NCBI GenBank assembly: GCA_965231145.1
Contig: OZ246420.1
Location: 360,001-392,000, forward strand
Source of the DNA: Candidatus Saccharimonadota bacterium
Lineage (GTDB): Bacteria; Patescibacteriota; Gracilibacteria; Absconditabacterales; Absconditicoccaceae
Direction: 5' to 3'
Length of the DNA stretch: 32,000 nucleotides
In this document: in pieces, positions 3,096 through 30,688 of the stretch
Numbering within the stretch: position 1 is the first letter of the stretch
Layout of the letters: each line of letters starts with the position of its first letter
The notes under the pieces: generated by a model
Seen by the model: only the letters and a program-made list of their open reading frames with translations
Database searches by the model: none
What the model was told of the DNA's origin: nothing
Made by a program: the position numbers and the translations under genes

Positions 3096-4148
3096 CTATT
3101 TTTTCTTCGGTAAAATCACCGGATTGATCGTCGTTATGTCAGGAAATAGTTTTTTCAGATCGCTCGGTATGTCGGTCTGTATATAGAGATTTTTTTCCGA
3201 AAAACAATCATAAAACCCATAGCCGTAACTATGCAGGAGTTGACGTGATACTTTTTCTTTTCTGTATGCTATATCATTTAACTTTTCGTCACCGTACATG
3301 ATATCTCCAATGATCGGTAGATTTTCTGATGCGAGGTGAACGCGTATCTGGTGCATTCTTCCTGTGTGAAGTGTCACAAGCAAGAGTGATATGTCACCAA
3401 GCGTTTCGTTTGAAATAGTTGAAATACATTCAAACTCAGTCTTAGACTCGAGGCCTTTTTCCTTGCTTACATACATTTGAGCTCTTTCATCATTTGCATT
3501 AAACCCTTTAAACAAAGGCTTGTCTATGATCATATGTGCTGGTGCTTTCCCCTTTACTACAGCGAGATATTTCTTTGTTACCTTTCTATCTCTGATGATC
3601 TCATTGAGATATTGAAGTGCCTCATAATCCTTTGCTCATACGATAAGTCCTGATGTATCTTTATCGAGTCTAAATCCAAATGAAGGTTTAAATGTTGCGC
3701 CCATCTTTGTCGGATCTTTCCCTTCTTTTTTCCATACCCAGTGCACATATGTCTCCAAATAATCATTGAGCGTGATGTCATTGAGATGGAGGTTTCCTGG
3801 ATGGATGACAATGCCATAAGGTTTGTTCCAGAAAATCCAGTGGGCGTCTTCGTAGACGATTTGCTTCTTAATATCCTCAATCGAGATGTTATGCTTCTTA
3901 AGAGTCTTTTCTGCGTGTGCAATAAATGGCTGCTTTAAGGTCAACTTCTCTTCGCTAAACTCTACTACGTCGCCGAGGACAAGTTTATAATTTTCTTCTT
4001 TTTTCTTTCCGTTTACCTTGATCGCTCCTTTTCTGATCCATGAATAGATATCAGCAAGTGTCACTTCGGTTTCTAGTTTGAAATATTTTCTTAAAAATCT
4101 ATCAAAGCGTTGATTAGCTTCGTTTACATGAATTTCTTTACGTGACAT
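3096..4148 (-). CDS. RluA-family (RluC/RluD-like) rRNA pseudouridine synthase with an N-terminal S4 domain
   Basis: Track ORFs 3636..4148 and 3096..3533 are in one frame (1053 nt), joined through TGA at 3636-3638 (plus-strand tca). Motifs: FRLDKDTSGLIV-G-AKD (catalytic Asp motif), TGRMHQIRVHLA, and an S4-like N-terminus RFDRFLRKYF...IRKGAIKVNGK. Confidence 0.9.
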
Positions 4149-4336
4149 TGGATGTCTGGAGAATAAAAAATAGACTATAACTATCTAAGGAGTAAGTATA
4201 CTGAAAAGAGTGTATTGAACAAGGACAATTAGATTGTAATTTGTAAACAGGTATTTTCTATTTACGGTTGCAAATGAGCCCATAAAACCTACAACGTACG
4301 AAAGAAATTATCGGTTATTATTTTTCCTTCCTCCTG

Positions 4337-5812
4337 ATGAAAAAACATAAGCATATACAGAAAAAAATACCATACCTTTACGTTGGAATAGCTGCAGGAG
4401 TGGTCGCATTGGTGGGTATTTTCTTGTATCTCAAAATCGTCTATTTTCCAGATAGAGCGCAGTTTGGTCTCGGGGGTTCTTTCAATTTTGCAAAGGAAGA
4501 TATTGATCGCGCTCGTGCTCTCGATATTGGTGCGCTGCACTCATTCACAGGTGATTACATCGTTTCGGCAAACACGCTTACTTCTATGGAAGCTGTCTAT
4601 AAGGAGACGCATGATCACAAGGTCGCATTTTCTTTGCTGCAAATGTATATTATCCACTATCAATTTGATAAGGCGTTTCTTCTGATCAAAGACATGTACC
4701 GTAAGGAGATTGATTTTACCGTGATCCCGCCTTCAACATTTCTCTATATCTTTTTTAATTCCTCTCAGCTCTCGCCTTCAAACTATGAGCTTATACAGGG
4801 TATCATAGAAGATTATAAAAATAACGAGCGTATAGATCAAGAAACAGCAATAGTATATCGCTCTCTGTTGGATCTCTATAGATGAGACCAGATTTCTTTT
4901 TATAGTGGTGTGCAAACGCTTTCTGTGACAGGAGAATATAAGAGTCTGGTAGAAGGAATTCAGAATGCGCAAAAAGCAGCAAGAGATATTGGTACATCAT
5001 TGGCGTATTATCAGGATGGGCTTTGAGCATTGGTATTGCTTCAGGAGTGATACTTTAGAGTAGCCCAGAAATGGGCTGTTACTATTAGAACAAAAGATAC
5101 GAAGTATGTACTTCCGTATCAAATTTTAGCTCAGGCAGCATTGCTTCAGAGCCACCGGGATGAAGCTGCGCAGTATTTTGATACATTGTTAAAGATGGAT
5201 AATACACATCCAAGTCAGTATCAGTTTGGCTTATGCAGGAGTTACTTCCGGCTTGGGGATTATGCAAAAGCAGTACAGCACTGTCAGCAAGTAAAAGACA
5301 AAAGTTTGTACGATGCTTTAAGATATGAGCTCCTTGCATATTATCAGAAAAAAGATTGGCAGGGAATGATGAACACCTTTCAAGGACTTCTGACAAAGAA
5401 ACAGATCAGTGAAAATGATTATTATACGTTTTTTGATATCGTCTTTTACCAGCCATTTGTGACTGATAAGGACTTCGCTCATGTGCAAAAGTATTATGTT
5501 TCAGTAGTTCTTCCTTATCTGAATCAATGTGTGTCAGACTTCAGTGCGTCTGCAACAGTATGTAAATATGGGCAGGCATGATTTTACTTGTACAAAAACG
5601 ACTTCTCAAAAGCATATAGAGACCTGCTCTTTCTTGCATCTCGTCATCCGAGTAGTTATGTGTTTAGAGCTCTTGGTCAGTACTATGAATGACGTGGAGA
5701 TGAGGATAAAGCAAAGGCATACTACCTCAGAGCGTCAACTCCAACGACGTGAGCAGTTCTCGATATCTCTTCGTTAATAAGTTGAGCTTGAAATAGCTCG
5801 AAGAATGAATAA
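4337..5812 (+). CDS. Membrane-anchored TPR-like repeat protein (491 aa)
   Basis: Track ORFs 4337..4885 and 5141..5581 are in one frame. I checked codon by codon: in-frame TGAs at 4883, 5024, 5048, 5579, 5690, 5750, 5783 and 5789, and the first true stop is TAA 5810-5812. There is an N-terminal TM helix (IPYLYVGIAAGVVALVGIFLYL). TPR-like helices include RLGDYAKAVQHCQQV and ALGQYYE-G-RGDEDKAKAYYLRA. Confidence 0.6.
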
Positions 5813-8337: not shown

Positions 8338-8354
8338 TAGTATATACTGCATAT

Positions 8355-8380
8355 GAGCTGCTACTTGCTAGCAGCTCTTT
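8355..8380 (+). terminator. Rho-independent terminator after secD
   Basis: GAGCTGCTA-cttgc-TAGCAGCTC, a perfect 9-bp stem, followed by TTT. It sits 18 nt after the secD stop. Confidence 0.5.
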
Positions 8381-8397
8381 GACAAGGAGAAATAGTT

Positions 8398-11300
8398 ATG
8401 ATACGCTTTTATCAGTTTAGTCTATCCGCTTCTATGAAAAAGACGATCTTTCTTATTGTAGGTATCCTTATTGTTCTTGTCCTTTGATATCAGGTATTTG
8501 ATGCATATCTTGCAAATCATACATATTACCGGGGAACGGCTACTGACGTTGGTATGATTGGAAGCGGAGCAAATTGGAAGATACTGATCTGGTCTATCGT
8601 ATTTGCTGCACTTCCTATTACGTATCTTCTCGCATTTAAAAAGAAGACGCTGAAGGGCTTTGCTATTTCCTTGTTTTCATGACTTTTCTTATATTCAGTA
8701 GCAGCGTCTGCAGTGAAAGATGCGCTTATTTGACCAGGATTCCTTATTATGTTATTTAAGTATGTGATCCTTTTTGCTGTTATCTCTTACTTTATAGCAG
8801 GTCTTGTTTCTACAGGAACGTGGATAAGACATAAGATTTTTGGTCAACATCATCGAAGTATCGAACAAATATTTCTCAATATCGGCCTTGGACTTATGGC
8901 TTTCTGTCTTATTAATTACGTCCTTATTGTTCTTCATCTTTTCTATGGAATTGTTGTCGCTATCTTCTTTGTTGCATATGGTGTTTGCAGCTGGATGATG
9001 AAAAAGGAACTTACTCATGTAAAGACAACGATTGAACATATCCTCAATATTATCTCGTGGGAAAAGGTGAAACACTCTCCGATGTTTTTTGTGTACATCT
9101 TATTGATACTTTTTTCACTCATGTATATTTACCATGGATTTGTCCTTGCGGACATCCCATACCCAACAGCATGGGACGCAAATCATGCATATATGTACTT
9201 CCCTAAAATATGGGCTTTGAATAGTGGTTATTACTGGGAAGCAGGACTGGCGAATAACCCTCAAATCTGGTATACATATATAGCGTTTTGGTTTAAACTT
9301 ATGTATATTTTTGGGACAAATACATGGATCAGTGCTGATAATCTCGCTGTTATTATGAACTTTATCAGTGGAGTATTTGTGCTCTCGTTTGGACTTATCC
9401 TGGTGAGAGAGGTTATTCACTTCATCCAGGGTAACGATGAGCATCAGGAAAATATTTTCTTTATCATCGGATGGTTCCTTCTTATCCTTTGGTTAACCAG
9501 TGGTATGGGAGCATTTCTTGTATTCGTTGATAATAAGACGGATCTTGGTATTATGGCTCTTACGATCTTAGCTCTTTACTCAGGCTTCTTGTTTATCAAC
9601 CAGCTTGCTACTTCAGGTCAGCATAAAGACTCTATGCAATATGCTATTCTTTCAGGAGTATTGTTCGCGGGAGCTATTCTTGCAAAACCGACAGCTACGT
9701 TTGATGTGATTAATTTCACTGTTACGTTGATCGCATTGTGGTTTGGAGGTATCTTGGCATTGGGTGTTATCTTAGGAATCATAGGGGTGCTTGGTAAGTC
9801 TTCTATCCTCACTGCGCAGAAGTTTATTAGTCCGGCTCTTGCCAATCAAATGCTCATCTCATGAGGTGTACTTTCAATTATAGGAGTTGTTTACGCATGG
9901 ATAAAGAAGAAATGGCAGCATATTCGTTATATTATTGTATGGGCGGCTGTCATCATAGGTACACTTCTTATCGTAAAAGGACCATACCTTCTTGCAAAAC
10001 AACTAAAGATAGATCATGAATTTAAGCCTTCTCAGCTAGTAAAAGATATATTCCTTACGCAGCAGACAGAGCAAAAAAAGAAACCAATCTTGCTCGCAAG
10101 TACTGTAGATTATAATCAGCTTTTAGCAGCAGATATTGATATAAGCGATGCAGCAGCAGTAGCTACTACAGGTGCAACTTCTCCTATGGATGCAGCACTT
10201 GCTGCATGTAAGGCGCAAAATGTTTCTACAGAAGATCTTTATAAAGATCTTAAGACGCCTCCGGGAAGTGCTCTCAATGAAGACGTTGGAAGATACGTCG
10301 GATATGGATGGAGAAGCTTTACCAATCCATGGTGGTGATTTGTTATAGGAAATGGATGTCATGGGAAAAAAGACGCAAAGATTCTCTGTGAAAATCAGGG
10401 TATTCTAGAAGCTCCTACGCATTCAGGATTGCAAATGATCCATGATATGTTGCCAGATGAAAGCGAAGCAAAATCTATGATAGGAGAAGCTTTATTGCTA
10501 GATCCGACAGCTCTCGCTACGAGTGAGATTATGCTCAATATTAAATCATACTATCAAGATGGAAGCTGGGCAAAGCAGAATGGTGTTGTCTCTTTACCAT
10601 ATATTGCTCTTGTTCCTTTCAATATTACATTTAACTGGTCGCTTCAAAATCTTACGAGTTATTATACTGATATTGGAGTAATCTGGCTTATCTGTTTGTT
10701 TATTGTTATACTCGGTTTTGTATATAGTCTTGTACAATGGAATAAAAAACTTTTCGCTGTCACTCTTTCTGCTCTTTGTGGATGGACGATTTGGTGGATT
10801 GCGGGAGGAGCTATTCTTTGGTATTCTCTTGGTGTGGTCATCTGGACTATCATCGCAACTATCCTTGTGCTGTATACATTTGGACAACGTAATAATGCAC
10901 TCCAGAAAAATCTTTTCTCAGCAATTATCCTTATACTTGCTCTCATTGGTATCTACCAACTGTTTCTTAACTTTATCAGAATATCGTCGCAGTGAGGCGG
11001 AGGACCATTCGTATGGTACAAAGCAAATGTGGGAAATAAGATGAAATTTGATAATAATTTGCAGCAGCAAACTGTGCAGAAAATAGGATATAACGATAAG
11101 GATGTGTTTGAACTGCAGTTCGGTTCATATACGCCCATTATTAATATACTTGATCAAAGAGGTGAAGATGAAGGAGTTATCGTTGCCGGAACATATCTTT
11201 CGTATTTCCTACGTAATCAGCACAGACTTGAATCTGATGGTTTTCTTGTTAGTTTCCGGAAAAATCTCTCTGACAATAATCCATGTAATACATATCTGAG

Positions 11301-11949
11301 GTTGCGCGATCAAAAAATTGGTTATATAGTTATTGATCCAAATATTGCCAGCGTCGTTATGGGTGATGCAAATAGTACTCTCAGAGACAGAATATTTGGT
11401 AAGTTTGATGCAACAAACTCTAAGGTTGTTGATTATGGTTCTATGACTATGATCGCAAAAATGATCAATGATGGATATATGTCTCTTGCTTCTACCAATA
11501 TCATTAGCGCGAAATATGCGTTTACACTTTCGTATGAGGAGTTAAAAGCAGCATATCCAAACGTGCAGGAAGAGGAGTTCGTGTTAAGAACAAAACTTGC
11601 AACTCTGAGATTTTGGGGCAATGCGCAGGAACTTTTCAATGGTATCCCTGCCATCTTTAATCAAAGAATGATCAATGGAGAGGCTGTAAGTGATGTAGCA
11701 ACTGTGTTGGGTAAGGATGTCGACATCACAAAGATAAGAGGAATAGCTTCTTCAGTTCTCTCTCAAAAGAAACTCAATGTCGATGTGATTGCTCCTCTCA
11801 ATGAAGATGAAAGAACAGTACTTGTGCAATATCTTAGTTTATACAATATGATGAAAACAAATCCTCAGCAATATCAGCAGGTGATGATTTCTCTTCTTCA
11901 ACAAAGTGTGCTTGGAAATAGTCAGATTATGCTCTTTAAGCTCAACTAG
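8398..11949 (+). CDS. Very large polytopic membrane protein (1183 aa), function unknown
   Basis: An AAGGAG Shine-Dalgarno lies 8 nt upstream of ATG 8398. Track ORFs 8749..9864, 10090..10338, 10429..10995 and 11029..11949 are all in frame 1. Reading the gaps shows only TGA (8485, 8680, 8731, 9862, 10336, 10993). Layout: about 14 N-terminal TM helices, a roughly 210-aa soluble insert, 4-5 more TM helices, then a roughly 300-aa C-terminal soluble domain. Confidence 0.7.
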
Positions 11950-19386: not shown

Positions 19387-20015
19387 TGCTTATAGTAACG
19401 CCTCATAATCTTATTGGTCTTGGATTGCCTGTCGAGGGAAAGGAATTTACTCGTTATTTTTCATGATTCCCGCTGACTGCTTTTGATCAGGAGGTTATCT
19501 GCTATCATAAAAAAAACATCGTTACCAAGCGCTGGAAAGATATTGGTTCTGGCGTTGAAATATTTCTTTGTAGACAGAAAAAAGAAGATACTATTTCTCC
19601 TGAAATGCTTGATCTCTGTATAAGATATGGTGAAGTGCTTGTTCGTGATGATGTTGTTACCGGGATACAAGTACATATTCCACTTACAGGAGCATTTCTT
19701 GGTAAAGAAGGCTATTTTTCTGATATGGTAGCTGATCTTTGGAAAGAAGGCTTTGTGGTAGTCCAGAGCGTGATTCAAACAAAGAATTTTCCTCTTATCC
19801 AATGGTCTATTACAGATCCAACGCTATTGGAAACTCTCGTTTCCTCTTTGAAACAGGTTGAAAAGCCTGCTGATTTGTCTATAGTGCAAAGCATTGCTAC
19901 CGTAGAACGTAGAAAACAGATCTTTGTTGCTTTTGAGGAATGGGCAACAAGCCAAGGATTTGATGCAAACTTACTTGATGAGTACGACGTTGTCGTATTA
20001 TCTTGTGATACATAG
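19386..20015 (+). CDS. Hypothetical cytoplasmic protein (209 aa), translationally coupled to the SEDS gene
   Basis: ATG 19386-19388 overlaps the SEDS stop (TAATG). This extends track ORF 19605..20015 through TGA 19464-19466. Stop TAG 20013-20015. No family recognised. Confidence 0.5.
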
Positions 20016-20084
20016 GGGGTTAGTGTAGCGGTAACACAACGGTCTTCGGAACCGTCATCGTCAGTTCGAACCTGGCACTCCCTG
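20014..20084 (+). tRNA. tRNA-Arg (anticodon TCG)
   Basis: Cloverleaf folded by hand. Acceptor AGGGGGT/ACTCCCT (one G-U); D arm GTGT-AGCGGTA-ACAC; anticodon stem ACGGT/ACCGT with loop CT-TCG-GA; T arm GTCAG-TTCGAAC-CTGGC; discriminator G. No encoded CCA. It starts inside the stop codon of the upstream CDS. Confidence 0.8.
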
Positions 20085-20178
20085 AACTCAATGAAATTTT
20101 AATTGTGAATATTAGATTTTCATATACATGTTCTCGGCATGGCTAAAAGTGTAGTATGTCGGTGGACTTTTTTCTTTA

Positions 20179-20209
20179 TAAAAAAAACGCCAGCCAAATG
20201 AGCTAGCGT
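20179..20209 (-). terminator. Rho-independent terminator of the lipoprotein gene
   Basis: On the minus strand: ACGCTAGC-tcatttg-GCTGGCGT (7 of 8 pairs) followed directly by T8. Confidence 0.5.
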
Positions 20210-20243
20210 TCAGATCTTTTTTAGTTAGCTGTTAGGAGCACTT

Positions 20244-20648
20244 TTATTCGACTATTGTTGCGACATCATTTTCCACTTTTATGGTTATGGAGTCGCCTTC
20301 CTTTTGGTCCCTTTTTCCCATTACGAGTACATAGAGCGATTTGGTGCCATCTTCCTCATTCTTAGAAAAGACTACATTTTTATTGTCTTCATGTAAATAT
20401 AGAGCAAGTTGTCCTGCTTTATCTATCTCTAATTCCAGAGGACTTGGTAGAGATCTTGTCCATGTTATATTTTCTTCTGTGCCTTCGAGCTCGGCTATAT
20501 AACATGCATTGTTGTTATCACCGTCGGATTGAAGCAGCATTAGGGGAAATTGTGTTTTAATTATGCCCCTTGTTGTTCCTGATTCGTCGCAGCCTATAAG
20601 TGATAGTAGTAAGAATGTAATAAAAAGAATCGTTAGAGAATGTTTCAT
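20244..20648 (-). CDS. Small lipoprotein (about 134 aa), function unknown
   Basis: Track ORF 20244..20684. The internal start MKHSLTILFITFLLLSLIGC at 20648 gives a textbook lipoprotein signal with lipobox LIG-C. No in-frame TGA. Located directly downstream of giant surface protein A on the same strand. Confidence 0.6.
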   Translation of the reverse strand: MKHSLTILFITFLLLSLIGCDESGTTRGIIKTQFPLMLLQSDGDNNNACYIAELEGTEENITWTRSLPSPLELEIDKAGQLALYLHEDNKNVVFSKNEEDGTKSLYVLVMGKRDQKEGDSITIKVENDVATIVE

Positions 20649-20736
20649 GTTTTCATTTTTTTTGTTAATCCGTATTTTAGCCATTAAAATTTATAAGTCA
20701 ATTTCTTTTTTTGTCCTTAGGAGGTTCTAATGTATA

Positions 20737-20768
20737 TAAAAAGCTCCCCTTCAATAGGGAGCTTTTTT
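20737..20768 (-). terminator. Rho-independent terminator of giant surface-protein gene A
   Basis: AAAAAGCTCCC-cttcaata-GGGAGCTTTTTT, immediately after the TAA at 20770-20772. A/T runs on both sides. Confidence 0.6.
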
Positions 20769-20769
20769 C

Positions 20770-23700
20770 TTATTGCTTGATAGTATTGATAATATTTTGC
20801 ATGAAGAGGGCGAATTTTCCTCTGCTGATAGCGTTGTTGTAGTTCATGCTTGGATCGTAATCCAGGAGTGGTTTATTGTAGTATTTCAGTATGTTATTTC
20901 CGATAGTATAGATATCCGCATATCTGATATACGATCTTGGGTCATGAGGTTGAGATGTGGTGCTTGCCCAGAGATTTACCTTTTGTCCTGCGAATCTGTA
21001 TCTGTCAGACCAGTGAGCCGGATTGGCAGTACGAGAGAAGCTGAGCCCCGCAAGTCTTGAGAACACCTTATATGCTTCACCCCATCTGAGGTAATTATAG
21101 ACGCCGAACATCTTTCCGCCATTGTATTCGCCCTGTACGAGACAGTAGTCGAGCATAAGGTCTACCGCTGGTTTGAAGATAGAATTTTGAATGTCCTTGA
21201 AGGTGGTTTTATATCTTTCGAAATCTCCGTCCTTATAGATACATACTTCGTCATCAAGCAGAGTAGGAGCAGAACCGAGAGAGACTATGTTTGGGATAGG
21301 ATTGCTTCCGAATCATCCTCCTGCATACCCTCGTGGATCAGGATTGGTTGGATTGTTTCATGTTGTAGATCCCGTAGATAAGCTTCATCCTGTGGCTGAA
21401 TTTCCTGTGAGTGCTTCAATATAGAGGAAAGATGCGTTGTTTATCATAGATACATCTTGGTAGATGCTTCCCGTAATAGTTGCAACATTCATCGCAAATC
21501 ATCCGCCTGAATAGATCTCATCATTTACTATAGCCTGTACAAGAATCGTACGAGAAGTGTTTGCAGGAATGCCTGCAGGTAAGTGCCAACTAAGAAGAGT
21601 CCCGCTATATGACCAGCTTCCTATTGGGAAGGTTCACATACTTTCCAATACAGTATTTGCTGCAATAGTCAGTCCTGATGTATAATTACTACTCACATAT
21701 GTCAGTCATGCTTGCATCTGATCTTGTACATATACTCCTGTTATGGTGTTTGCTCAGCTGTTCATATAGGTAAGTGTAAACGTAATAGGCTGTCCAGGTA
21801 TAACACCAGTAAGAACCGATGCAGATTTGAATATAGCAAGATCTCCGGTTATAAGAGGAGCAAATACTCTTACAGGAGAGGATGTAGATGTATTGTTTGT
21901 TCGATTGATATCTTGGAGATCACCACTAATAGATGCTGTATTTGTAAGTATTGTTCCTGAGACAACGCTAGCATCAACCTGAACATATACTTTAAATGAT
22001 CACGTTGCGTTTGGAGTAAGAGCCCATAGTTGCCATGTAATAGATGAACCGGTCACCGTTATGCCTGTCGTATAGTCGATGTTGAGAGGATTGTCGCTAA
22101 AGTCAGTGGTGACATACGTAAGACCCGCAGGTAATATATCTGAGATAATGATGGGTTCAGGAATACTATTATTTTCTGTTCTATAGTAGATGTCATATGA
22201 AAGTATGCTTCATGCAGTGATGGTTGTCCCGGTTGTAGACTTTGTTATTGAGATGTCTCCGGTTGCAAGCATGACATTAATGTTTGTAGTGGAACTATTA
22301 TTTGCTGGATTTACGTCGGAAAGATATCCATCAATAGTAGCTGTATTGGGAACTATTGTTCCAGATGCAAATGGACCACCGACATAAATATACATTACGA
22401 TACTACCGCTTTGCATAGGAGTAAGTGTACCGATATCCCATGATATATCTCTAAATCCTGTTATCATTATTGGTGCGGGAACAGCGCCATCATAGTCAGG
22501 GAGTGAAAGCCCCGTCATAAGAAGGTCATGAATAACGACGCCAGTAATGGTTGATGCTCAGCTGTTTACATAATTGATAATATAGGTTATGAAATTACCT
22601 ATATGAGCTGTAGCAGATCCAGAGACCGTTTTCGTGATCACAAGATCTGATGGTATATCCACGTCAAATAGTGTGACTGGTAGAGTAGTAGATAAGTTGT
22701 TGTTATTGTCGATATCACTGAGATTCCCATCAATGTTGACGGTATTTGAGATTACATCACCCGATACGAAGCTTTCACTTATATATCCAGTGAGGAAGAT
22801 TCTACCGCTTTGCATAGCAGTAAGAGTGCCAATATCCCATACAAGATCGCTGCCGCTTACACTTGTTGGAGCAGGAGATGCACTTATAAAACTGAATCCA
22901 GACTGAAGACTATCATAGACGGAAATTCCTGAAACGGAAGTGCTTCCGCTATTTATATAATTTATGACATATGTGAAAGTTGAACCTATAAGGCCTGTAG
23001 TATTCCCATTTATCTTTACAACTCTCAAGTCAGAATAAATACTTGGGTCTATAACGGTTACAGGATTGCTTATTGATGAATCGTTGAGCTCATCTCCGCT
23101 TAGCTGATGGACGCGTCAGTATATCGTTGCCATGTTGGTGATGGTGTCTCATGACATAAAAGGCACACCATCCCAGTTTGTATCTACCTGTCCCGTAAGG
23201 ATGATATAGCCTGTTTGCATCGAAAGAAGTTCACCAATATCCCAAGAAAGAGAACCGCCAATGACTGTTGTTGGGGCTGGTGATGCGCTGATAAAGTTCA
23301 GTCCAAGAGGCATGTCGTCGTAAATCATCACTCCTGATACAGCCATGGCTCAGCTATTTACATAGCTTATAATATAGGTCACAAGTCCACCACCGATGGT
23401 GGCGTTTACGTTTGTACTTGATTTGTTAATTGCAAGATCTGATATAACACATCGATATTGAGTTAATTTCCAATCTGCTTCTGCTTGTGCATCTACAAAT
23501 GCTGCAGGAGGTTCTGGTAAGAGTGTGTTGAGACAATTGTAATTAATCATTAATCATCCTGAAACAATACTTGTCATATTTGTCCGACTTGCAGGAACAT
23601 TTCCTGTCAGATAGTTTTGTCTCAGATCCATTTGAGTAATACCAGTCCGTGCAGACCAACTTGCAGGAAGAGTCCCCACTAGACCATTTCCTGCGAGAGA

Positions 23701-24711
23701 AAGATAGCCAATTTTTTTCCAAGTTGACCAAGTCGAAGGAAGGGTGCCAGTGAGTTGATTTGAACTAATATTTACATTCTCTACACCAGTCCAAGTCGAC
23801 CAACTTGTTGGTAATGACCCAGTTACTTCATTGTGATGAATAGTGAATTCACGTATTTTTGTCCAACCAGACCAGCTTGCTGGAAGGGAGCCTTGGAGTT
23901 TATTTCTATACATATAAAAAACATCCATCTTCGTCCAAGTCGACCAGCTTGTAGGCAATGGTCCTGTTATTTCATTATCCATCATGTAAAAGGCAGACAT
24001 ATTCGTCCAACCAGACCAACTTGCAGGAAGGGTCCCTTTGAGAAAATTAGAATTTAAATCAATATACATTATTGATGACCATCCTCCCCATTCGCTTGGA
24101 AGAGTTCATGTCAGGAGATTAAATGGCATTACAAATGACTGAATTTCTTTCCATCCCGTCCAACTGGTAGGAAGACTTGTGAACTTATTATAGCCAGCGT
24201 GAAATGACTTAATCCCCGTCCAAGTTGACCAAGTCGAAGGTAATGCTCATGAGAGGTTATTGAAACTTATATTAAATTGTTGAATTCCTGTCCAAGTTGA
24301 CCACGTAAGCGGGAGTGTGCCTTGGAGAGAATTGTTCGCAAGATTGAGTCCTGTAATATATCTCAATCCCGACATGCTATTCGGAAGAGGACCTCCTATA
24401 ATATTGTTTGAGGGGAGTGTTACTCTTGTAACATGATCCTGTCCGGCAATGTTTGTACAACCAATACCATACCATGTACACACATTGGTATTTGTATTCC
24501 AGTTTGTGCTATTTGTCCATGAGGCTCAAGCAGTATTGTTAAACAGTTCCACAAGTCCCTGACATTCTATTACGGGGACATTGATACTTCATGCTGTGCT
24601 ACAGTTAAGCATAACGGCAGAAGAATCTTTTGCGGTAAATGCAAAATAGTAGAGCATGCTTGCCGCTATAAAGGTCCCCGCGAGACCTCGATGATGTTTG
24701 CGTATTTTCAT
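20770..24711 (-). CDS. Giant secreted surface protein A (1313 aa): signal peptide, LRR N-cap, 12 LRRs, about 5 DUF11-type repeats, SLH-like C-terminal module
   Basis: Eight track fragments share one minus frame: 20770..21156, 22210..22518, 22558..23028, 23149..23346, 23350..23550, 23554..24069, 24247..24483 and 24589..24807. Every junction is TGA. I hand-translated the uncovered 21157..22209 stretch and found 9 TGAs and no TAA/TAG. About 19 in-frame TGAs in total. The start at ATG 24709-24711 was chosen by homology to the paralog (MKIRKHHRGLAG vs MKIHRHHRGLAG). DUF11 signature: TYIISYVNS-G-AMAVSGVMIYDDMPLGLNFISASPAPT...WDIGELLSMQTGYIILTG. Confidence 0.85.
21420..23440 (-). repeat. Array of about 5 DUF11-type (conserved repeat domain) modules inside protein A
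   Basis: Recurring pattern: x-T-Y-x-I-x-Y-x-N-S-G, 3-4 residues, (V/I)-(S/T)-G-V, then D-x-L/M-P-x-G-L-x-F/Y-(I/V)-S, then W-D-I-G-x-L-x-x-M-Q-S/T-G. Modules begin near 23420, 22990, 22600, 22200 and 21790. Boundaries are approximate. Confidence 0.6.
23554..24432 (-). repeat. 12 tandem 72-nt (24-aa) leucine-rich repeats inside protein A
   Basis: Units such as IQQFNISFNNLSGALPSTWSTWTG, MSAFYMMDNEITGPLPTSWSTWTK and VENVNISSNQLTGTLPSTWSTWKK. The DNA-level echo is visible as recurring gtccaagt(c/t)gaccagcttg motifs on the plus strand. Confidence 0.8.
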
Positions 24712-24753
24712 TGAGAAGAGATGAATATAAATAATGAATAATATTTTTTTAGT

Positions 24754-24759
24754 ATTATA
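24754..24759 (-). promoter_or_regulatory. Candidate -10 box (TATAAT) for gene A
   Basis: Perfect TATAAT on the minus strand (plus-strand attata), 43 nt upstream of ATG 24711 and just downstream of gene B's terminator. No convincing -35. Confidence 0.25.
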
Positions 24760-24787
24760 GAAAAGAGCGCCTTTGTACAGCGCTCTT
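24757..24787 (-). terminator. Rho-independent terminator of giant surface-protein gene B
   Basis: AAGAGCGC-9 nt-GCGCTCTT, a perfect 8-bp stem (24763-24770 / 24780-24787), followed on the minus strand by a U-rich tract. It lies 35 nt after the TAG at 24822-24824. Confidence 0.6.
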
Positions 24788-24821
24788 CGTATTAATCTGG
24801 TTGACATTTATTTGCTCGTAT

Positions 24822-27800
24822 CTATTGTTTAATGGTCGTGATAAGTTGCGCAATAAAGAGAGCAAATTTACCTCTGCTGATTGCGTTATTATAGTTTAAT
24901 GTTGGATCGTATTCGAGTGGAGGTTTGTTGTAATATCTGAGTATGTTATTCCCAATAGTGAATATATCGGCATATCTGATATATGATCTTGGGTCATGAG
25001 GTTGAGATGTAGTACTTGCCCAGAGGTTTAATTTCATTCCCGCAAATCTATATGTGTCTGACCAATGAGTCGGACGAGCTTTTTTAGTAAAATCTACTCA
25101 CGCGAGTCTTCAAAAGATTTTATATGCCTCACCCCATCTAAGGTAATTATAGACTCCAAACATCTTTCACTGATTGCGCTCTCATTGAACAAGACAATAA
25201 TCGAGCATAGTATCTACAGCAGCCTTAAAGATAGAGTTTTGTATGTCTTTAAACGTCGTTTTAAATTTTTCAAAATCACCGTCGTTGTATATACATGTTT
25301 CATTGTCGAGGAGCGTGGGAGCTCCTAGTTCAACTATACTAGTATTTTCTGTTTCTCCTGTGATACTGTGATACGTAATGCGTGGGGGATCCCATCCTCC
25401 AGGTCCTGCATACGATCGTGTCTCGTTATCGTTCGAAGGAGTGCTGAAGCTATCTCCGCTTATATCGCTTGCAACGAGGAACGTGAAGCTCACATTTGAT
25501 ATATTGTTATCGCTATCGATGTCAGTAGGAATAGGACTTTCTATCTGAATAGTATTTCGTAGGCTGCCTCAAGATGTTCCTGTCATAACCTGAGCTTGCA
25601 TTGTTATAATACCAGAGCTATGAGCTGCTAGTCCTGTAGGCAAGTACCAGTAAAATGAAGTATATGATATATCTCCTGTTACGATATCTGGCGCAAGACT
25701 GGAAGTCAGATACATGAGATCTGGGCTCATGATATCCAGTAACGATATCCCTGTCACGGCATTTTCACCACTGTTCGTATAGACAATCGTAAATGTAACG
25801 ACGTCTCCAGAATATGCTCCTGTATGAGAACTTGATTTGATAATAGCTAAGTCTCATGTGAAAATCGCTCCAAAGACAAGTATATCGTTAGCGGTAGATA
25901 TATTGTTTGTCCAATTGCTATCTTCTATGGTGCCTGTTATGAACGCTGTATTGCTTATCAATGTTCATGAGCTAGTGCCTCCATCTATTTGTGCATATAC
26001 GGTAATGATACCAGTGCTTTGAGAGTCTACTTCCCAGAAATTCCACGTGATGTTGGAACCGCTGACAACAATACCAGTACTGAAGTCGTATCATGAACCA
26101 AAATCTGTAGATACATATGTTAATTCTACAGGGAGAGAGTCAGATATGCTAAATGCTGATGGAGCATTTCCTGATGTGTATTGTTCATTGCTATATTCTA
26201 GTGTATATGCAATAGTGTCTCCTGCAGTGGCAGATGTGTTTAATGAAGTTTTTTCTAGAGAAAGATCTCCAGTAATTGGGCTACCTATAATGGTTATTGG
26301 AGATGTTGTTGATGTGTTGTTTAGTGTGTCTATGTCTGTCAATATTCATTCAATAGTTGCTGTGTTGCTTGCTGCGTCGCCCGAGAAGAATCCATTTCAA
26401 ATAGATACAACCAATGTTATTGTTCCTCATTCCATGGGAGTAAGTGTACCGATATCCCATGATATTTCTTGTCATGTGATCATAGTCGCACTAGGAGTTG
26501 CATTGTCATAGGTAAATCCTGTGAGCAATGTATCGCGTATAATTACTCCTGATACAGCCATGGCTCAGCTATTGATGTAATCTATAGTGTATGTATATGT
26601 TCAGTTAATAATTCCTGTTGTTAGTGTGCTATTGTTTTTTGTGATGACGAGATCAGATTCGATTGCACACAGATCCTGTAGGCTTTCCCAGCCTGTTCCT
26701 GCTTTTGATTCTACAAATGAAGCTGGAGGTTCAGGGAGATCTGGTTCAAGACAGTTATTTTCAAGATGTAGTCCTATAGTAGATGCTAATGGTGTAGTAA
26801 GCGCCGTCATAGATGTCCAGCTTGCAGGCACTTCGCCTTCTAGAAAGTTTGAATTTAGTAAAAGATTGTTTACTCATACCCACGCCGACCACGATCCTGG
26901 TAAGGTTCCAGTAAGAATATTGTTATTCACCGCGAAGCCTACTAGATTTGTCCATGTTGACCAGCTTGTAGGCAGATTTCATCATAGCAAATTATTTCCT
27001 ACGTCAAAATATCTCATTTGTGTCCAAGTCGACCAGCTTGCTGGCAATGTTCCAATAAGATCATTGTTTTTGGCTCCAAAGGCGGAAATGTCAGTCCGCG
27101 TAGACCAGCCTGCAGATAGAGTTCCAGTGAGATTATTTTCATCAACATAAAAGGCTGTTATGTTGCTCCATGTTGACCATTCTGTTGGTATGATTCATAT
27201 TAATTGATTATTTCTTGCGCAGAAGTAATCCAGCTGTGTCCATGCCGACCACGATGCTGGTAGGGTTCCAGTGAGGTTGTTGTAGCATACTCTAAAGTGT
27301 GTAAGATTTGTCCATGTAGACCACTCGCTTGGTAATGTTCCTGTAAAATGATTACTGTCTATTCTAAAACTTTCTAGGTTTGTCCATCATGAAAGTGATG
27401 CTAGAGGCTGTCATTGTAGCTCATTTGCGGACACTAGAAACTGTCTCATTCCAGTTAGCAACCTCCATTCATTGGGTATAAATCCGACTATCTTATTTAC
27501 ACTTAAATCTATTATTTCGAGAGCACTCAAGGTTCGCCAGTCCGAGGGAAGTGTTCCAGTAAAGTTATTATATGATGCATAAAATTCTCTCAAAGGATAT
27601 CCAGCGGGCACTCATCCATTGCCCCAGATTGCAGGAAGTTCTCAGGTAAACTGATTTTCGGCGATATTAATAATCTCTACGCTTGGTAATCGGTCAATCC
27701 ATCAGCTCCAAGGGCCTGTTCATCCTATAGAGTTTGTCGATACATTGAACTCTTTTATGTTTGTCCATGTAGCCCATTCTGTTGGTAGTGTTCCAGTTAA

Positions 27801-28490
27801 ACTATTGCGTGAGGTGTTGAAATATTGTATGTTTCCCCATGTTGACCAACTTGCTGGAAGTTCTCATGTAAGTTGATTTCCTCCGACGCTAAAGTGTTGT
27901 ATATTTGTCCATGAGCTCCATGCTGTTGGTAATATGCTTGAAATTCTATTACTTCAAACATTGAAATATTGTATGTTTTCCCACGTTGACCATTCGCTTG
28001 GAAGAGTTCCTGTTGTTCCTATGAGAAATCATACGTTTACTCATTGCATATTAAAATACTCTATGCCCGTCCACGTTGACCATTCGGCGGGAAGCATCCC
28101 TCCCAGTGTATTGTCTGATAGATTTAAACCTGTTAAGTAGCTTAATCCTGACATACTCTTTGGTATCAGAGTTCATGACATATTATTACTCGGTAGCGCA
28201 AGCACAGTGACATGATCCTGTCCTGCGATATTTGTACAAGTGATACCTGCCCAACTACAAATATTTGTATCTGTATTCCAGTTGGTATTGTATCATCGTG
28301 ATGGACCATCCATGTTGTTATAGAGTTCAACCAGTCCCCAACATTCAATAGCTGGTACGTTGATGCTTGATGCTGTATTACAGTCGAGCATGACAGCAGA
28401 GGATTGCTGAGACGTCAATCAAAAATAGTAGAGCAATGTCGCTGCTACAAACATACCTGCTAACCCTCGATGGTGGCGATGTATTTTCAT
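24822..28490 (-). CDS. Giant secreted surface protein B (1222 aa): signal peptide, LRR N-cap, about 19 LRRs, 3 DUF11-type repeats, SLH-like C-terminal module
   Basis: Track fragments 24822..25037, 25182..25493, 25569..25757, 26091..26342, 26601..26831 and 27411..27611 share one frame. I hand-translated all remaining stretches from ATG 28488-28490 down to TAG 24822-24824. That gave about 31 in-frame TGAs and no in-frame TAA/TAG. The N-terminus reads MKIHRHHRGLAGMFVAATLLYYF-G-LTSQQSSAVMLDCNTASSINVPAIECWGLVELYNNMDGPS...NICSWAGITCTNIAGQDH. The C-terminus is close to protein A (...ISRGKFALFIAQLITTIKQ). Confidence 0.85.
25570..26650 (-). repeat. Three DUF11-type modules inside protein B
   Basis: Module signatures: TYTYTIDYINS-G-AMAVSGVIIRDTLLTGFTYDNATP...WDIGTLTPME; TIAYTLEYSNEQ...ISDSLPVELTYVSTDF; VTFTIVYTNSGENAVTGISLLDIMSPDLMYLTSS. 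Boundaries are approximate. Confidence 0.55.
26751..28211 (-). repeat. About 19 tandem 24-aa leucine-rich repeats inside protein B
   Basis: Units such as LESFRIDSNHFTGTLPSEWSTWTN, LTHFRVCYNNLTGTLPASWSAWTQ and MRYFDVGNNLLGGNLPTSWSTWTN. A few are irregular or longer (IEYFNMQGVNVGFLIGTTGTLPSEWSTWEN). The array ends in a Cys-containing cap: HLENNCLEPDLPEPPASFVESKAGTGWESLQDLC. Confidence 0.8.
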
Positions 28491-28590
28491 GAGTGAACAA
28501 TAGAATATAAGCTATACTCATCAATAATACTCTATTTTTGGATAAAATAAAAAATCCTTCTATAAGTAAGCCATTTTGCTCTAAAACGAT

Positions 28591-28620
28591 TTGACATATT
28601 TGGACAAACCATTTTAATAT
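28591..28620 (+). promoter_or_regulatory. Candidate sigma70-type promoter upstream of tRNA-Arg(GCG)
   Basis: TTGACA (28591-28596), an 18-nt spacer, then TAATAT (28615-28620), about 100 nt upstream of the tRNA. A second, weaker candidate is TTGCTA-N16-TATATT at 28663-28690. Sequence pattern only. Confidence 0.3.
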
Positions 28621-28718
28621 ATTTCCCAGGGTTCTTTGTCTTCTTATTTTCTGACGTTTCGCTTGCTATTTTACGCCCGTTTACTATATTCGTGCAATGC
28701 GCTACGCGCTCACTATCT

Positions 28719-28793
28719 GGTCTCATCGTTCAATGGATAGGACACAACCCTGCGAAGGTTGTAATACAGGTTCGACTCCTGTTGGGACCACCA
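28719..28793 (+). tRNA. tRNA-Arg (anticodon GCG), CCA encoded
   Basis: Cloverleaf folded by hand. Acceptor GGTCTCA/TGGGACC (one U-G); D arm GTTC-AATGGATA-GGAC; anticodon stem CAACC/GGTTG with loop CT-GCG-AA; T arm ACAGG-TTCGACT-CCTGT; discriminator A + CCA. Confidence 0.8.
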
Positions 28794-29662: not shown

Positions 29663-30688
29663 ATGGATACAAAAAAGATTCTTACAGAGCTTGCCGCTGT
29701 AGCATCATCGAAAGAACTAGACTCTTGGTATGAGGCTTATCTTGGTAAGAAGGGAGAGATAACATTGGCATCTAAAGGGCTATCTGCTCTTTCTCCTGAA
29801 GAGAAAAAAGAGATGGGTCAAAAGCTGAGTGAGGCAAAAAAGAGCGTGACAGAAGCATATGAGCTCAGAGCCGTAGAATTTCAGCGCGAAGCTATCAATG
29901 CTCAGCTTGCTGATGATATCGTAGATATCTCTCTTGAGAAGCCACTGAGCGCGGCATGACATGCTCATCTTTTGCATGCAGAAAGAAGACGTATCGAAGA
30001 GATCTGTCAGGGAATGGGTTTCATTATTGAGTACGGAAAGGATGTGGTAACGAAATATGAAAATTTCTATTCGGTTAATATCCCCGCAACACATCCTGCA
30101 ACTGAAATGCACGATACATATTTTCTTTCTCAATTAGACCCTGACGGAGATAATTTCGTGCTTCGTACACAAACATCTGCGATGCAAAATGATCTCATGA
30201 AGCGCTACGGCGCACCACTGAAAGCGGTTGTTCCGGGAAAAGTATATAGAAATGAGAGTACTGATGCGTCGCATGATACTGTATTCCGACAGCTCGAAGG
30301 AATGGTAATAGATAAAAACATGAGTATTGGACACTGTAAAGAAATGCTCACATCGTTACTTTCTGCTATCTTTGGAAAGAGTATGACGATTAGGATGAGA
30401 CCCGCATATTTCCCTTTCGTAGAACCAGGTTTTGAGATAGATGCGAGTTGTCCTATCTGTGAACAGAAAGGATGTTCGCTTTGTAAGCAGACTGGTTGGA
30501 TTGAGATTGTTGGTGCTGGTATGATTCATCCACGTGTCTTGGAAGAAGGAGGAATAGACAGTAAAGAGTATACTGGATTTGCCTTTGGTATGGGTATCAA
30601 TAGAGTTGTTTCTATCAAATATGCTATAAAGGATATCAGATATTTCACCAATGGTGATCTGAGGTTCCTGAAGAGCTTCTCTGCGTAA
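29663..30688 (+). CDS. pheS: Phenylalanine--tRNA ligase alpha subunit
   Basis: Track ORFs 29663..29959 and 29972..30688 are in one frame, joined by TGA 29957-29959 (...LSAA-G-HAHLL...). Class II motifs: NIPATHPATEMHDTYF, FVLRTQTSAMQ, GKVYRNESTDASHDTVFRQLEG, MRPAYFPFVEPGFEID, GAGMIHPRVL, GFAFGMGINR. Confidence 0.95.

Follow-up and report, generated by a model that had tools for sequence, protein, structure and literature searches.

Genes A and B, adjacent neighbours on the minus strand of the 32,000-nucleotide stretch of DNA analysed here (the window), probably encode SLH wall-anchored fibrillar adhesins. To judge by their sequences they are old tandem paralogs within a lineage-restricted family, and their architecture and evolutionary pattern suggest a role in attachment to a host or prey cell. 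The genes and their surroundings are:

20013..20085, plus strand: tRNA, anticodon UCG (A1:U72, G73, without A20), left border of the variable slot
20244..20648, minus strand: small lipoprotein gene (MKHSLTILFITFLLLSLIGC, with lipobox), in the slot downstream of A
20738-20767, either strand: palindromic hairpin, terminator-like in both directions, immediately after the A stop codon
20770-24711, minus strand: gene A, 1313 aa; 18 UGA codons (Gly) and 6 CGA/CGG codons (probably Trp)
24754-24759, minus strand: TATAAT box, 43 nt upstream of the A start
24787-24759, minus strand: terminator-like hairpin AAGAGCGC-N9-GCGCTCTT plus T run, 3' of B
24822-28490, minus strand: gene B, 1222 aa; 31 UGA codons (Gly) and 7 CGA/CGG codons (probably Trp)
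28719..28793, plus strand: tRNA-Arg(GCG) (A20, A73, encoded CCA), right border of the variable slot

Genetic code and integrity of the genes

Translated with table 11 the A/B region splits into short fragments; with TGA as a sense codon both frames are uninterrupted (A from ATG to TAA, B from ATG to TAG), in agreement with a sequence-only reading which had described two genes intact only under an altered code. The TGA codons of A and B align with Gly of the paralog or of the repeat consensus (LTxTLP with LTGTLP, NSxA with NSGA, VQxE with VQGE), which indicates that UGA encodes glycine, as in code 25. Table 4 (TGA as Trp) was rejected because TGA occupies Gly positions. The 22 window genes counted, A and B included, contain a total of 127 TGA codons (Nfo, for instance, has 12 and FtsW has 9). 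In the source organism CGA and CGG very probably stand for Trp, and the tRNA(UCG) possesses A1:U72 and G73 and lacks A20, all of which are Trp-type identity marks. With this assignment six residues of A and seven of B would read W rather than R, so that table 25, used for the earlier translation, would mistranslate 13 codons over the two genes; its glycine codon stands, but it is very probably not the organism's full code. The recoded Absconditabacteria/Gracilibacteria origin proposed earlier fits, the closest named relatives of PheS being SR1 genomes.

An alternative upstream ATG at 24807 would lengthen A by 32 aa. It was rejected in favour of 24711, since the extra stretch holds the B terminator, and paralogs and orthologs alike retain the N-terminus MKI..HH.G. 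Each gene is followed by its own terminator-like hairpin, as had been claimed; that of B was read by eye from the sequence, its loop of 9 exceeding the limits of the hairpin scan. The small lipoprotein gene gave no family match and was found in the source organism only.

The numerous in-frame TGA codons could also be taken as a sign of decaying pseudogenes or of an assembly artefact, the intact look of which comes from the choice of code only. The probability of this is negligible and the idea is effectively refuted already, because the housekeeping genes of the window use TGA likewise, the TGA positions coincide with Gly, full-length orthologs and paralogs with the domain order kept are present in at least five independent assemblies, and three sequencing runs gave an identical sequence.

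Domain organization

The modular plan of the sequence-only reading, with an export signal, a capped LRR solenoid, DUF11 repeats and a conserved C-terminal anchor, was recovered in both proteins, as were its counts of 12 (A) and about 19 (B) LRRs and of about five (A) and three (B) DUF11 domains. The Pfam/HMMER check gave matches of the DUF11 and LRR models to A and B, and LRRNT_2 passed in B only. "Giant" was a generous word for a length of 1.2-1.3 kaa, though long surface proteins they appear to be. In the list below, which follows each protein from its N-terminus, the signal peptides, C-terminal LRR caps and linkers were read from the sequence; the solenoids derive from LRR model matches and a unit count, the CLIPPER domains (the current name of DUF11, PF01345) from Pfam and profile matches, and the SLH domains from the family profile together with A/B identity (B) or with AF2 and Foldseek (A).

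24613..24711, minus strand: A residues 1-33, presumed signal peptide
24433..24612, minus strand: A residues 34-93, cap as in B (LRRNT_2 14.7 bits, under the Pfam threshold of 20.7)
23569..24432, minus strand: A residues 94-381, LRR solenoid, 12 units of 24 aa
23440..23568, minus strand: A residues 382-424, C-terminal LRR cap (NYNCLNTLLPEPPAAFV...C)
21412..23439, minus strand: A residues 425-1100, five CLIPPER domains, triad in each
21277..21411, minus strand: A residues 1101-1145, low-complexity Gly/Ser/Thr/Asn/Pro linker
20773..21276, minus strand: A residues 1146-1313, predicted divergent three-motif SLH domain (modelled)
28392..28490, minus strand: B residues 1-33, presumed Sec signal peptide
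28212..28391, minus strand: B residues 34-93, four-Cys LRRNT_2-type N-cap (25.3 bits; cut-off 20.7)
26796..28211, minus strand: B residues 94-565, LRR solenoid, ~19 units
26655..26795, minus strand: B residues 566-612, C-terminal LRR cap NNCL..LPEPPASFV...C, kept by all family members
25461..26654, minus strand: B residues 613-1010, three CLIPPER domains, triad in each
25326..25460, minus strand: B residues 1011-1055, low-complexity Ser/Thr/Gly/Pro linker
24825..25325, minus strand: B residues 1056-1222, predicted divergent three-motif SLH domain

The N-terminus of B comprises a basic n-region, a hydrophobic core and an S-S-A|V site directly before the conserved mature N-terminus (M)LDC.TA, a layout which recurs in A, in C and in the relatives L005, L008 and L049. 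Export would be by Sec, with cleavage of the signal peptide at the conserved S-x-A site; the segment could instead be an uncleaved membrane anchor.

The Cys-framed cap which follows is of the plant LRRNT_2 type, and has the pattern ..EC.GLVELYNN...NW.TDTNIC.W.GI.C in B. The LRR_1, LRR_8 and LRR_4 models match both proteins, the units of B being 17 strict and two irregular. The unit consensus is plant-type and 24 residues long (IxxFxVxxNxLTGTLPxSWSTWTx). Entropy is 3.3-3.9 bits for the six x positions on the concave side, and about 1 bit or less for the strongly conserved scaffold (positions 4, 9, 13, 15, 16, 19, 20 and 22).

PF01345 matches A in five stretches (229.7 bits) and B in three (139.3 bits). 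TIGR01451 and TIGR04226 also match, the latter, an isopeptide-forming domain, at A residues 821-928. The isopeptide triad Lys/Asp/Asn is present in all of the CLIPPER domains of A and B; in an alignment of 20 repeats (A, B, C and orthologs) neither Lys nor Asn varies, and Asp is found in 19 and Glu in one. In the PDB the repeat profile matched 9IFR alone (E 2e-7), with whose isopeptide-forming K715 and N806 the family Lys and Asn align (PMC12617251). Stalks of fibrillar adhesins are typically built of CLIPPER domains (PMC12617251). The L005 counterpart of the B linker is poly-Gly.

The C-terminal module

The C-terminal 168 aa of A and B are 80% identical. The Pfam SLH model did not match this module in either protein, even at E<=10. 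A family profile of 19 modules, by comparison with the PDB, matched 11 sequences, every one an SLH domain (best matches: SbsB 4AQ1, 1e-7; SpaA 6CWC, 1.3e-3; Sap 6BT4, 1.5e-3), the alignment being collinear across the three motifs. The AlphaFold check, run on the A module (AF2; pLDDT 82, pTM 0.81), led to the same fold: the top 15 Foldseek matches are SLH domains (TM 0.53-0.65) and the following match has E>1. Since both the family profile and the model match SLH domains only, we identify the module as a predicted divergent three-motif SLH wall anchor; the earlier description as SLH-like is upheld by the profile and fold search, but not by the Pfam model. Four proteins with other N-terminal parts (P0007, P0010, P0011, P0020) end with the same type of module, which is the pattern expected of an anchor.

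The module has a conserved Cys pair. Of the three motifs only the third ([ST]RGK, with Arg encoded by AGA) retains the ligand-binding Arg of the SLH "TRAE" motif; the first carries Trp at this site ([KR]WGE) and the second is variable. With Arg retained in one motif only, binding to a pyruvylated wall polymer is not assured. This atypical module would suit released effectors which attach to the prey or host wall polymer instead of the producer's own, and deliver the LRR part to the target. We regard this as very unlikely, given that a wide range of proteins from this lineage share the module and invariably have it at the C-terminus, the pattern of a self-anchor, and that a long cross-linked stalk is ill-suited to a soluble effector.

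SLH anchors are characteristic of S-layer proteins and their associates, and the PDB matches of the module are all S-layer proteins. A and B might then be structural proteins of the envelope (subunits of an S-layer or fibrous coat, or self-adhesins between sister cells) rather than receptors for foreign cells, the paralogs being condition-dependent; each does have its own terminator. The adjacent S-layer genes sap and eag of Bacillus anthracis are the model for alternative paralogs used under different conditions. In Vampirococcus, moreover, the fibrous surface is attributed to large proteins, and the cells stack (PMC8080830). We consider this explanation rather unlikely: the SLH domain lies at the C-terminus and an LRR solenoid forms the tip, no domain that might form a lattice can be recognised, and CLIPPER runs typify stalks, not lattices (PMC12617251). 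The locus and its relatives, described below, supply two further arguments against it.

Locus and evolution

A and B occupy a variable slot between two tRNA genes. The number of family genes between tRNA(UCG) and tRNA-Arg(GCG) is zero in L009, one in L008 and two in the window. The corresponding locus next to CBS-PheS carries at least two copies in L049 and at least three in L005. The slot of L008 also contains, beside the family gene, a reverse-transcriptase gene which is possibly a defence element. Judged by sequence this is a rare family, restricted to SR1/Absconditabacteria-like genomes. The DNA identity of A and B is 71% at the 5' ends and 76-79% at the 3' ends, and we interpret the pair as an old tandem duplication without recent gene conversion.

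Compared with the L049 ortholog, identity is 90% in the SLH module, 76% in CLIPPER and 47% in the LRR region (PheS 94%), which puts figures on the "conserved ends, diversified middle" of the sequence-only reading. The corresponding dN values are 0.066, 0.17 and 0.58 (PheS 0.040); dS is saturated in this comparison, making omega values unreliable. Within the LRRs 13-25% of concave positions are identical as against 57-59% elsewhere (Fisher p = 3e-25), a turnover possibly exaggerated where the alignment pairs non-orthologous repeats. The concave face thus appears to have been almost completely replaced between close relatives, while the anchor has been conserved. Such extreme turnover is unexpected in a self-assembling lattice, and the slot is empty in the close relative L009 (this refers to the slot only, a paralog elsewhere in that genome being possible); both observations argue against envelope proteins.

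A fast-changing exposed LRR face and a copy number which varies in the slot would also be seen if the proteins were variable surface shields or decoys, altered to evade phages or host enzymes and antibodies and not for choice of ligand, and the reverse-transcriptase gene of L008 could be counted in favour. This is quite improbable, because the hypervariable residues coincide exactly with the canonical ligand-binding face of LRRs, the window shows neither phage nor defence genes beside A and B, and a search of L008 for a DGR-type template and variable repeats found none.

Comparison with known proteins

In working plan, which is known here from sequence, A and B resemble the internalins of Listeria without being members of that group. 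In InlA and InlB a capped N-terminal LRR horseshoe binds the receptor, followed by an Ig-like spacer and C-terminal wall attachment. Internalin repeats are 22 residues long, with a cap peculiar to the group, and anchoring is through LPXTG or GW modules, whereas the LRRs of A and B have 24 residues, are of the plant-specific type and carry an LRRNT_2 cap. Among the SLH-anchored surface proteins of Firmicutes, IlsA of Bacillus cereus (NEAT, LRR and SLH) is an LRR-plus-SLH protein.

When the first 682 residues of A (cap, LRR and the two leading CLIPPER domains) were compared with the database, LRR and PF01345 never occurred together outside the family among the 120 best-scoring matches. The best non-family LRR matches among them are plant LRR receptor kinases (Xa21, BAM1, FLS2), kinetoplastid GP46-like surface antigens and the bacterial XopAC/XopAE, the last also matched weakly in NCBIfam. 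These plant-specific LRR ectodomains share the 24-residue LxxLxLxxNxLxGxLP unit and the CxWxGVxC cap. Unlike them, A and B bear a family-specific SWSTWT motif on the convex side, have no kinase or transmembrane part, and set the LRRs in the context of a bacterial stalk and anchor.

With the SLH proteins of Firmicutes, such as Sap (3PYW, 6BT4), SpaA (6CWC) and SbsB (4AQ1), A and B have in common the three-motif fold (TM 0.53-0.65), a profile collinear over all three motifs and, in the third, TRG.FA. They differ from these in their low identity (11-14%), in being missed by the Pfam SLH model, in the Trp replacing the ligand-binding Arg of the first motif, in the conserved Cys pair and in the C-terminal position of the module. 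Acinetobacter silvestris B9T28_05395 (9IFR; PMC12617251) likewise combines a signal peptide with a distal binding domain, a stalk of tandem CLIPPER domains bearing the isopeptide triad Lys/Asp/Asn, and a C-terminal sorting/anchoring domain; A and B are set apart from such CLIPPER fibrillar adhesins by the plant-type LRR tip, the divergent SLH anchor and the recoded CPR host.

Large DUF11-bearing surface proteins of Vampirococcus have previously been proposed as host-attachment factors (PMC8080830), and LRR expansions of Saccharibacteria as adhesins (PMC7739484). Vampirococcus lugosii and the oral Saccharibacteria are CPR epibionts or predators whose large or expanded surface proteins have been linked in these proposals to host recognition and attachment; neither paper reports the A/B architecture, the SLH anchor, a tRNA-flanked variable slot or the turnover of the LRR face.

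Proposed role

As wall-anchored fibrillar adhesins, A and B would be tethered non-covalently through the C-terminal SLH domain to a cell-wall glycopolymer, and the isopeptide-stabilised CLIPPER stalk would hold the N-terminal LRR horseshoe out from the cell. The concave LRR face would then bind a ligand carried by a second cell, which in the case of an SR1-type epibiont or predator would most likely be its host or prey, though the ligand could be something else. It is plausible that A and B are putative cell-attachment proteins of a tiny parasitic bacterium, in which a rapidly replaced binding face on a conserved scaffold of anchor and stalk, together with a changing copy number, would give rise to different specificities.

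Reading frames and genetic code

Under the bacterial code the minus strand of the window (38.5% GC) holds only short ORFs between 20770 and 28490. With TAA and TAG as the sole stops, two long frames appear, the adjoining paralogs A and B:

20770-24711 (-), gene A, 1313 aa, 18 in-frame TGA, stop TAA
24822-28490 (-), gene B, 1222 aa, 31 in-frame TGA, stop TAG
20738-20767, terminator-like hairpin after A
24787-24759, terminator-like hairpin after B

Opposite TGA the other paralog or the repeat consensus carries glycine (LTxTLP/LTGTLP, NSxA/NSGA, VQxE/VQGE, RLAxV/RLAGL), which argues that UGA is read as glycine, as in code 25, and not as tryptophan; table 4 (TGA = Trp) was rejected on these matches. 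The codon is used alike in the rest of the window (127 TGA codons over the 22 genes counted, A and B included), the genes with sense TGA including those for MoxR, RluD, SecDF, NrdR, Nfo, RuvC, FtsW/RodA, PheS and a methyltransferase. The big protein database contains the locus only as table-11 fragments or table-4 mistranslations, and a first pass of word-indexed homolog searching returned table-11 fragments only.

An upstream ATG at 24807 would give a longer A. Since the terminator hairpin of B lies inside this extension, and the N-terminus MKI..HH.G is kept in paralogs and orthologs, the longer form was rejected and the start of A kept at 24711. The proposal that each gene has its own terminator agrees with the hairpins found 3' of both. 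Since the shared ends are just 71-79% identical at the DNA level, recent gene conversion within the pair was rejected as well; as judged from the sequences, the pair is an old duplication without recent gene conversion.

A small lipoprotein gene lies directly downstream of A (20244-20684, minus strand), probably starting at Met13 (20648), with the lipobox LIGC and a terminator of its own (20185-20211). It had no Pfam match, and was found solely in assemblies of the same organism. Nearly every family gene has the motif (A)TGTCAA(T/C) some 92-110 nt upstream of its start codon, ahead of a hairpin and an AT-rich promoter-like region. In the window it stands at 24801-24807 and 28591-28597, and it recurs in L005, L008 and L049 (loci from related genomes) and in L006, a locus of the same genome as the window. 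Its reverse complement is TTGACA; the frequency of ATGTCAA within the window is not above chance.

CGA and CGG codons

The sequence-only reading had translated both genes with table 25. Glycine at UGA and the two intact genes stand, but table 25 is incomplete, for CGA and CGG behave as tryptophan codons. The features concerned are:

Codons 8, 355, 376, 420, 937 and 1127 of A, CGA/CGG
Codons 8, 65, 267, 319, 465, 978 and 1025 of B, CGA/CGG
30287-30289, codon 209 of PheS
20013-20085, tRNA(UCG), one flank of the A/B block, conserved in L008 and L009 (both from related genomes)
28719-28793, tRNA-Arg(GCG), the other flank, conserved in the same two loci

Every CGG in A (355, 376) and B (465) falls on the invariant Trp position of the leucine-rich repeat (LRR) unit. 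CGA65 of B is aligned with W65 (TGG) of A, and CGA937 of A with a TGG-encoded Trp of B. The Trp of the C-terminal motif [KR]WGE is TGG in A, in B, in the third paralog C (located on L006) and in the first L005 gene, and CGA in L008 and the second L005 gene. Outside the family, PheS codon 209 reads CGA both in the window and in L005, but CGG in L008 and TGG in L009; 18 other bacteria have Tyr, Phe or His there. The tRNA(UCG) that borders the locus bears Trp-type identity marks, namely A1:U72, G73 and the lack of A20; the neighbouring tRNA(GCG) has A20 and A73. Shulgina and Eddy, using Codetta, predicted CGA/CGG to Trp reassignment for Absconditabacteria on the same criteria (PMC8629427). Here, then, CGA and CGG seem to be read as Trp and not as Arg, so that NCBI table 25 does not cover the full code of the organism and mistranslates six residues of A and seven of B. 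This gene-internal evidence matters for translating, modelling and expressing the proteins of the lineage.

Two tRNA genes with anticodon CCG are located next to paralog C on L006 (6350-6423 and 6736-6807). In one the acceptor set is Gly-like (G1:C72, C2:G71, G3:C70 and U73); the second carries A1:U72 and A73 and lacks A20. Both bear on the decoding of CGG.

The LRR region

Pfam and NCBIfam searches matched A and B with LRR_1 (43.5 and 74.1 bits, respectively), LRR_8 (50.7 and 70.4 bits) and LRR_4. The repeat spacing is 24 residues, with 12 units in A and 17 strict plus two irregular units in B, in keeping with the 12 and about 19 proposed beforehand. The consensus of 60 family units is I-x-x-F-x-V-x-x-N-x-L-T-G-T-L-P-x-S-W-S-T-W-T-x, which places the repeats in the plant-specific LRR class. 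Entropy is 3.3-3.9 bits at the six x positions that make up the concave face in the beta-strand, as against about 1 bit or less at the well-conserved scaffold positions 4, 9, 13, 15, 16, 19, 20 and 22. An LRRNT_2 cap (PF08263; gathering score 20.7) scores 25.3 bits in B and 14.7 bits in A, which has the motif ..NVCTWYGIGC. Among the matches listed, the best outside the family for the LRR part are plant LRR receptor kinases, kinetoplastid GP46-like antigens, algal LRR proteins and a few bacterial LRR proteins.

The CLIPPER repeats

DUF11, renamed CLIPPER in 2025, is a CnaA-like domain for which a crystal structure (9IFR) shows a Lys-Asn isopeptide bond with a catalytic Asp nearby (PMC12617251). 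PF01345 matches A in five stretches (229.7 bits) and B in three (139.3 bits), both above the gathering score of 24.6, which bears out the DUF11 repeats recognized at the outset. TIGR01451 matches as well, and TIGR04226, an isopeptide-forming domain, matches A at residues 821-928.

Twenty repeats from A, B, C and orthologs were aligned. Lys and Asn are present in 20 of 20 and Asp in 19, the remaining repeat having Glu. A profile of the repeats had 9IFR as its only match in the PDB [2e-7]; single-sequence PDB searches with the repeats missed this structure. The family Lys and Asn align with K715 and N806 of 9IFR; the catalytic Asp of the paper is Asp-748, and the aligned family Asp comes one residue later by chain count. 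The repeats of A and B thus keep the triad residues for a predicted isopeptide bond.

The C-terminal module, a probable anchor

The C-terminal module had been called SLH-like. In Pfam no family, SLH (PF00395) included, matched the last 211-212 residues even at E<=10, and a single-sequence PDB search gave only noise, the top matches being nanobodies (E ~0.3). But a profile built from 19 modules drew 11 PDB matches, all of them SLH domains, with SbsB best [1e-7], followed by SpaA and Sap; the alignment is collinear across motifs 1-3. An AF2 model of the module of A (pLDDT 82, pTM 0.81) gave the same answer in Foldseek against the PDB, where the top 15 matches were all SLH domains (TM 0.53-0.65; best 3PYW, E 3.8e-5, TM 0.65) and the next match had E>1. 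As the profile and the AlphaFold/Foldseek matches are all SLH, the guess was right although the Pfam SLH model fails. The module is best described, from profile and model, as a divergent SLH subfamily. In every member motif 3 is [ST]RGK, its Arg encoded by the genuine Arg codon AGA; motif 1, [KR]WGE, has Trp where the TRAE-type motif has Arg; and motif 2 is variable. The TRAE-type Arg is thus kept in motif 3 only, giving one canonical site. Two Cys are conserved in the module.

Searched exhaustively with HMMER, 1.84 billion representative proteins yielded only 21 that carry the module. It is C-terminal in nearly all full-length matches, with a short tail following it in P0015 and P0019. Three of the proteins (P0005, P0009, P0014) have the same LRRNT-LRR-CLIPPER plan ahead of it, and in four others (P0007, which has a NIDO domain, P0010, P0011 and P0020) quite different N-terminal parts precede it. 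The source translations of nearly all the full-length module proteins use TGA = Trp.

P0012, a giant protein (4410 aa) from the same search, is built of F5/8 type C (discoidin) repeats, and at ten internal places it partly matches the first half of the SLH-like profile, which suggests that single SLH-like motifs are scattered through a further huge surface protein, this one from a related organism.

Relatives and the tRNA-flanked slot

PheS was used as the handle for locating related genomes. The nearest are those of two Patescibacteria MAGs (L008, 81%; L009, 77%), followed by named SR1 (Absconditabacteria) genomes at 52-54%. A metagenome scan gave two distant loci only, of which L047 has two tandem family genes. 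Paralog C is encoded elsewhere in the genome of the window, next to tRNA genes; it has approximately 1430 aa, about 12 LRRs and, by motif, six CLIPPER starts. The content of the slot between the two flanking tRNA genes differs among the genomes. L049 and L005 were compared at the same locus beside CBS-PheS, where one tRNA or none was captured:

Family genes at the corresponding locus
L009, 8313-9196 region: 736 bp, no gene
L008, 2207-9201 region: one family gene and a reverse-transcriptase gene
Window, 20013-28793 region: lipoprotein gene, A and B
L049: at least two family genes
L005: at least three family genes

From this gene content the slot looks like a hotspot of gain and loss. A foreign-island origin was rejected on base composition, the G+C content being 0.39-0.42 across A and B and 0.34-0.43 elsewhere in the window.

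In L008, the closest species representative, the reverse-transcriptase gene (3259-4686, minus strand; RVT_1, YVDD motif) lies in the slot together with the lone family gene. A diversity-generating retroelement was rejected, with no reverse-transcriptase gene in the window and no template/variable repeat pair in L008, where the RVT_1 gene adjoins the family ortholog and the only repeats present are the LRR and CLIPPER units. The enzyme may be retron-like or a defence reverse transcriptase. On L049, positions 1-495 belong to another LRR protein of 2583 aa, which runs off the locus about 9 kb from the family genes in a genome whose PheS is 94% identical; the clade may have a wider expansion of LRR surface proteins.

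Divergence of the domains

B was compared with its L049 ortholog, taking PheS as the reference; dS was saturated in this comparison.

Divergence between the window and L049, by region of B
SLH: 90% aa identity, dN 0.066
Linker: 82% aa identity
CLIPPER: 76% aa identity, dN 0.17
C-cap: 76% aa identity
Signal and cap: 70% aa identity
LRR: 47% aa identity, dN 0.58
PheS (reference): 94% aa identity, dN 0.040

The two orthologs also differ by whole-repeat indels. Identity within aligned LRR units is 13-25% at the six concave positions as against 57-59% at the others (p = 3e-25), with the proviso that the pairing of true-ortholog repeats is not assured. A conserved anchor, a replaced binding face and a changing copy number are what is expected of proteins that meet a changing partner.

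Proposed function

The architecture of a fibrillar adhesin is complete in A and B: a signal peptide (judged by eye), a tip, a repetitive stalk and a surface anchor. By its domains the family belongs with the CLIPPER and LRR families and is a divergent member of the SLH fold, and its domain plan places it in the fibrillar adhesin class, adhesion itself being predicted. Export would proceed via the N-terminal signal, a conserved S-x-A site standing right before the conserved mature end (M/L)LDC.TA. The C-terminal SLH domain would provide non-covalent attachment to the wall, the CLIPPER stalk would resist protease and force, and the distal LRR horseshoe would bind its ligand on the concave face. 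We consider that A and B are probably SLH-anchored surface binding proteins. Four rival explanations were named: that they are structural coat or self-adhesion proteins, shields for immune or phage evasion, released effectors, or pseudogenes.

Internalins combine 22-residue LRRs with an internalin N-cap, an inter-repeat Ig domain and an LPXTG or GW anchor. Membership of A and B in this family was rejected, since their LRR unit has 24 residues, their cap is of the LRRNT_2 type and their anchor is SLH; no LPXTG motif occurs in either sequence. The likeness is one of working only, a functional resemblance. The general idea that DUF11 or LRR domains occur in large, adhesin-like proteins on the surface of CPR epibionts has been published (PMC8080830, PMC7739484), and no description of the LRR, CLIPPER and SLH combination, or of the divergent SLH subfamily, was found in the literature searched.

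The cultured members of the SR1-type bacteria are epibiotic predators (PMC8080830; PMC11452946), and the partner of the binding face would therefore most plausibly be the envelope of a host or prey. That A and B serve host or prey attachment specifically is a further, tentative step, to which we give rather less than even weight. The 1198-aa polytopic membrane protein encoded beside SecDF (8353-11949, plus strand; 31 Trp codons, 7 TGA codons) might be a glycosyltransferase-like protein of the envelope and bear on the synthesis of wall polymer.

We also offer a wider reading, as speculative and on balance unlikely. The genes of the slot would be host-range determinants of SR1/Absconditabacteria-type epibiotic predators, the concave LRR faces of the paralogs recognizing different prey envelope structures and the gain or loss of copies shifting the prey range. 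The SLH module, divergent as it is in having a single site with Arg and a conserved Cys pair, would be a CPR-specific wall anchor for a whole set of surface proteins, perhaps on a polymer unlike the pyruvylated ones of Firmicutes.

How recoded CPR epibionts and predators recognize and hold their prey is a mechanism unknown in the field, and standard annotation misses most of their surface proteins. The genes described here furnish a specific candidate family in which roles are clearly divided among a hypervariable LRR face, a stalk predicted to be cross-linked and a conserved anchor. The variable locus can be compared across strains with different hosts, and the profile of the cryptic SLH-type anchor could serve to catalogue every wall-anchored surface protein that these bacteria possess.
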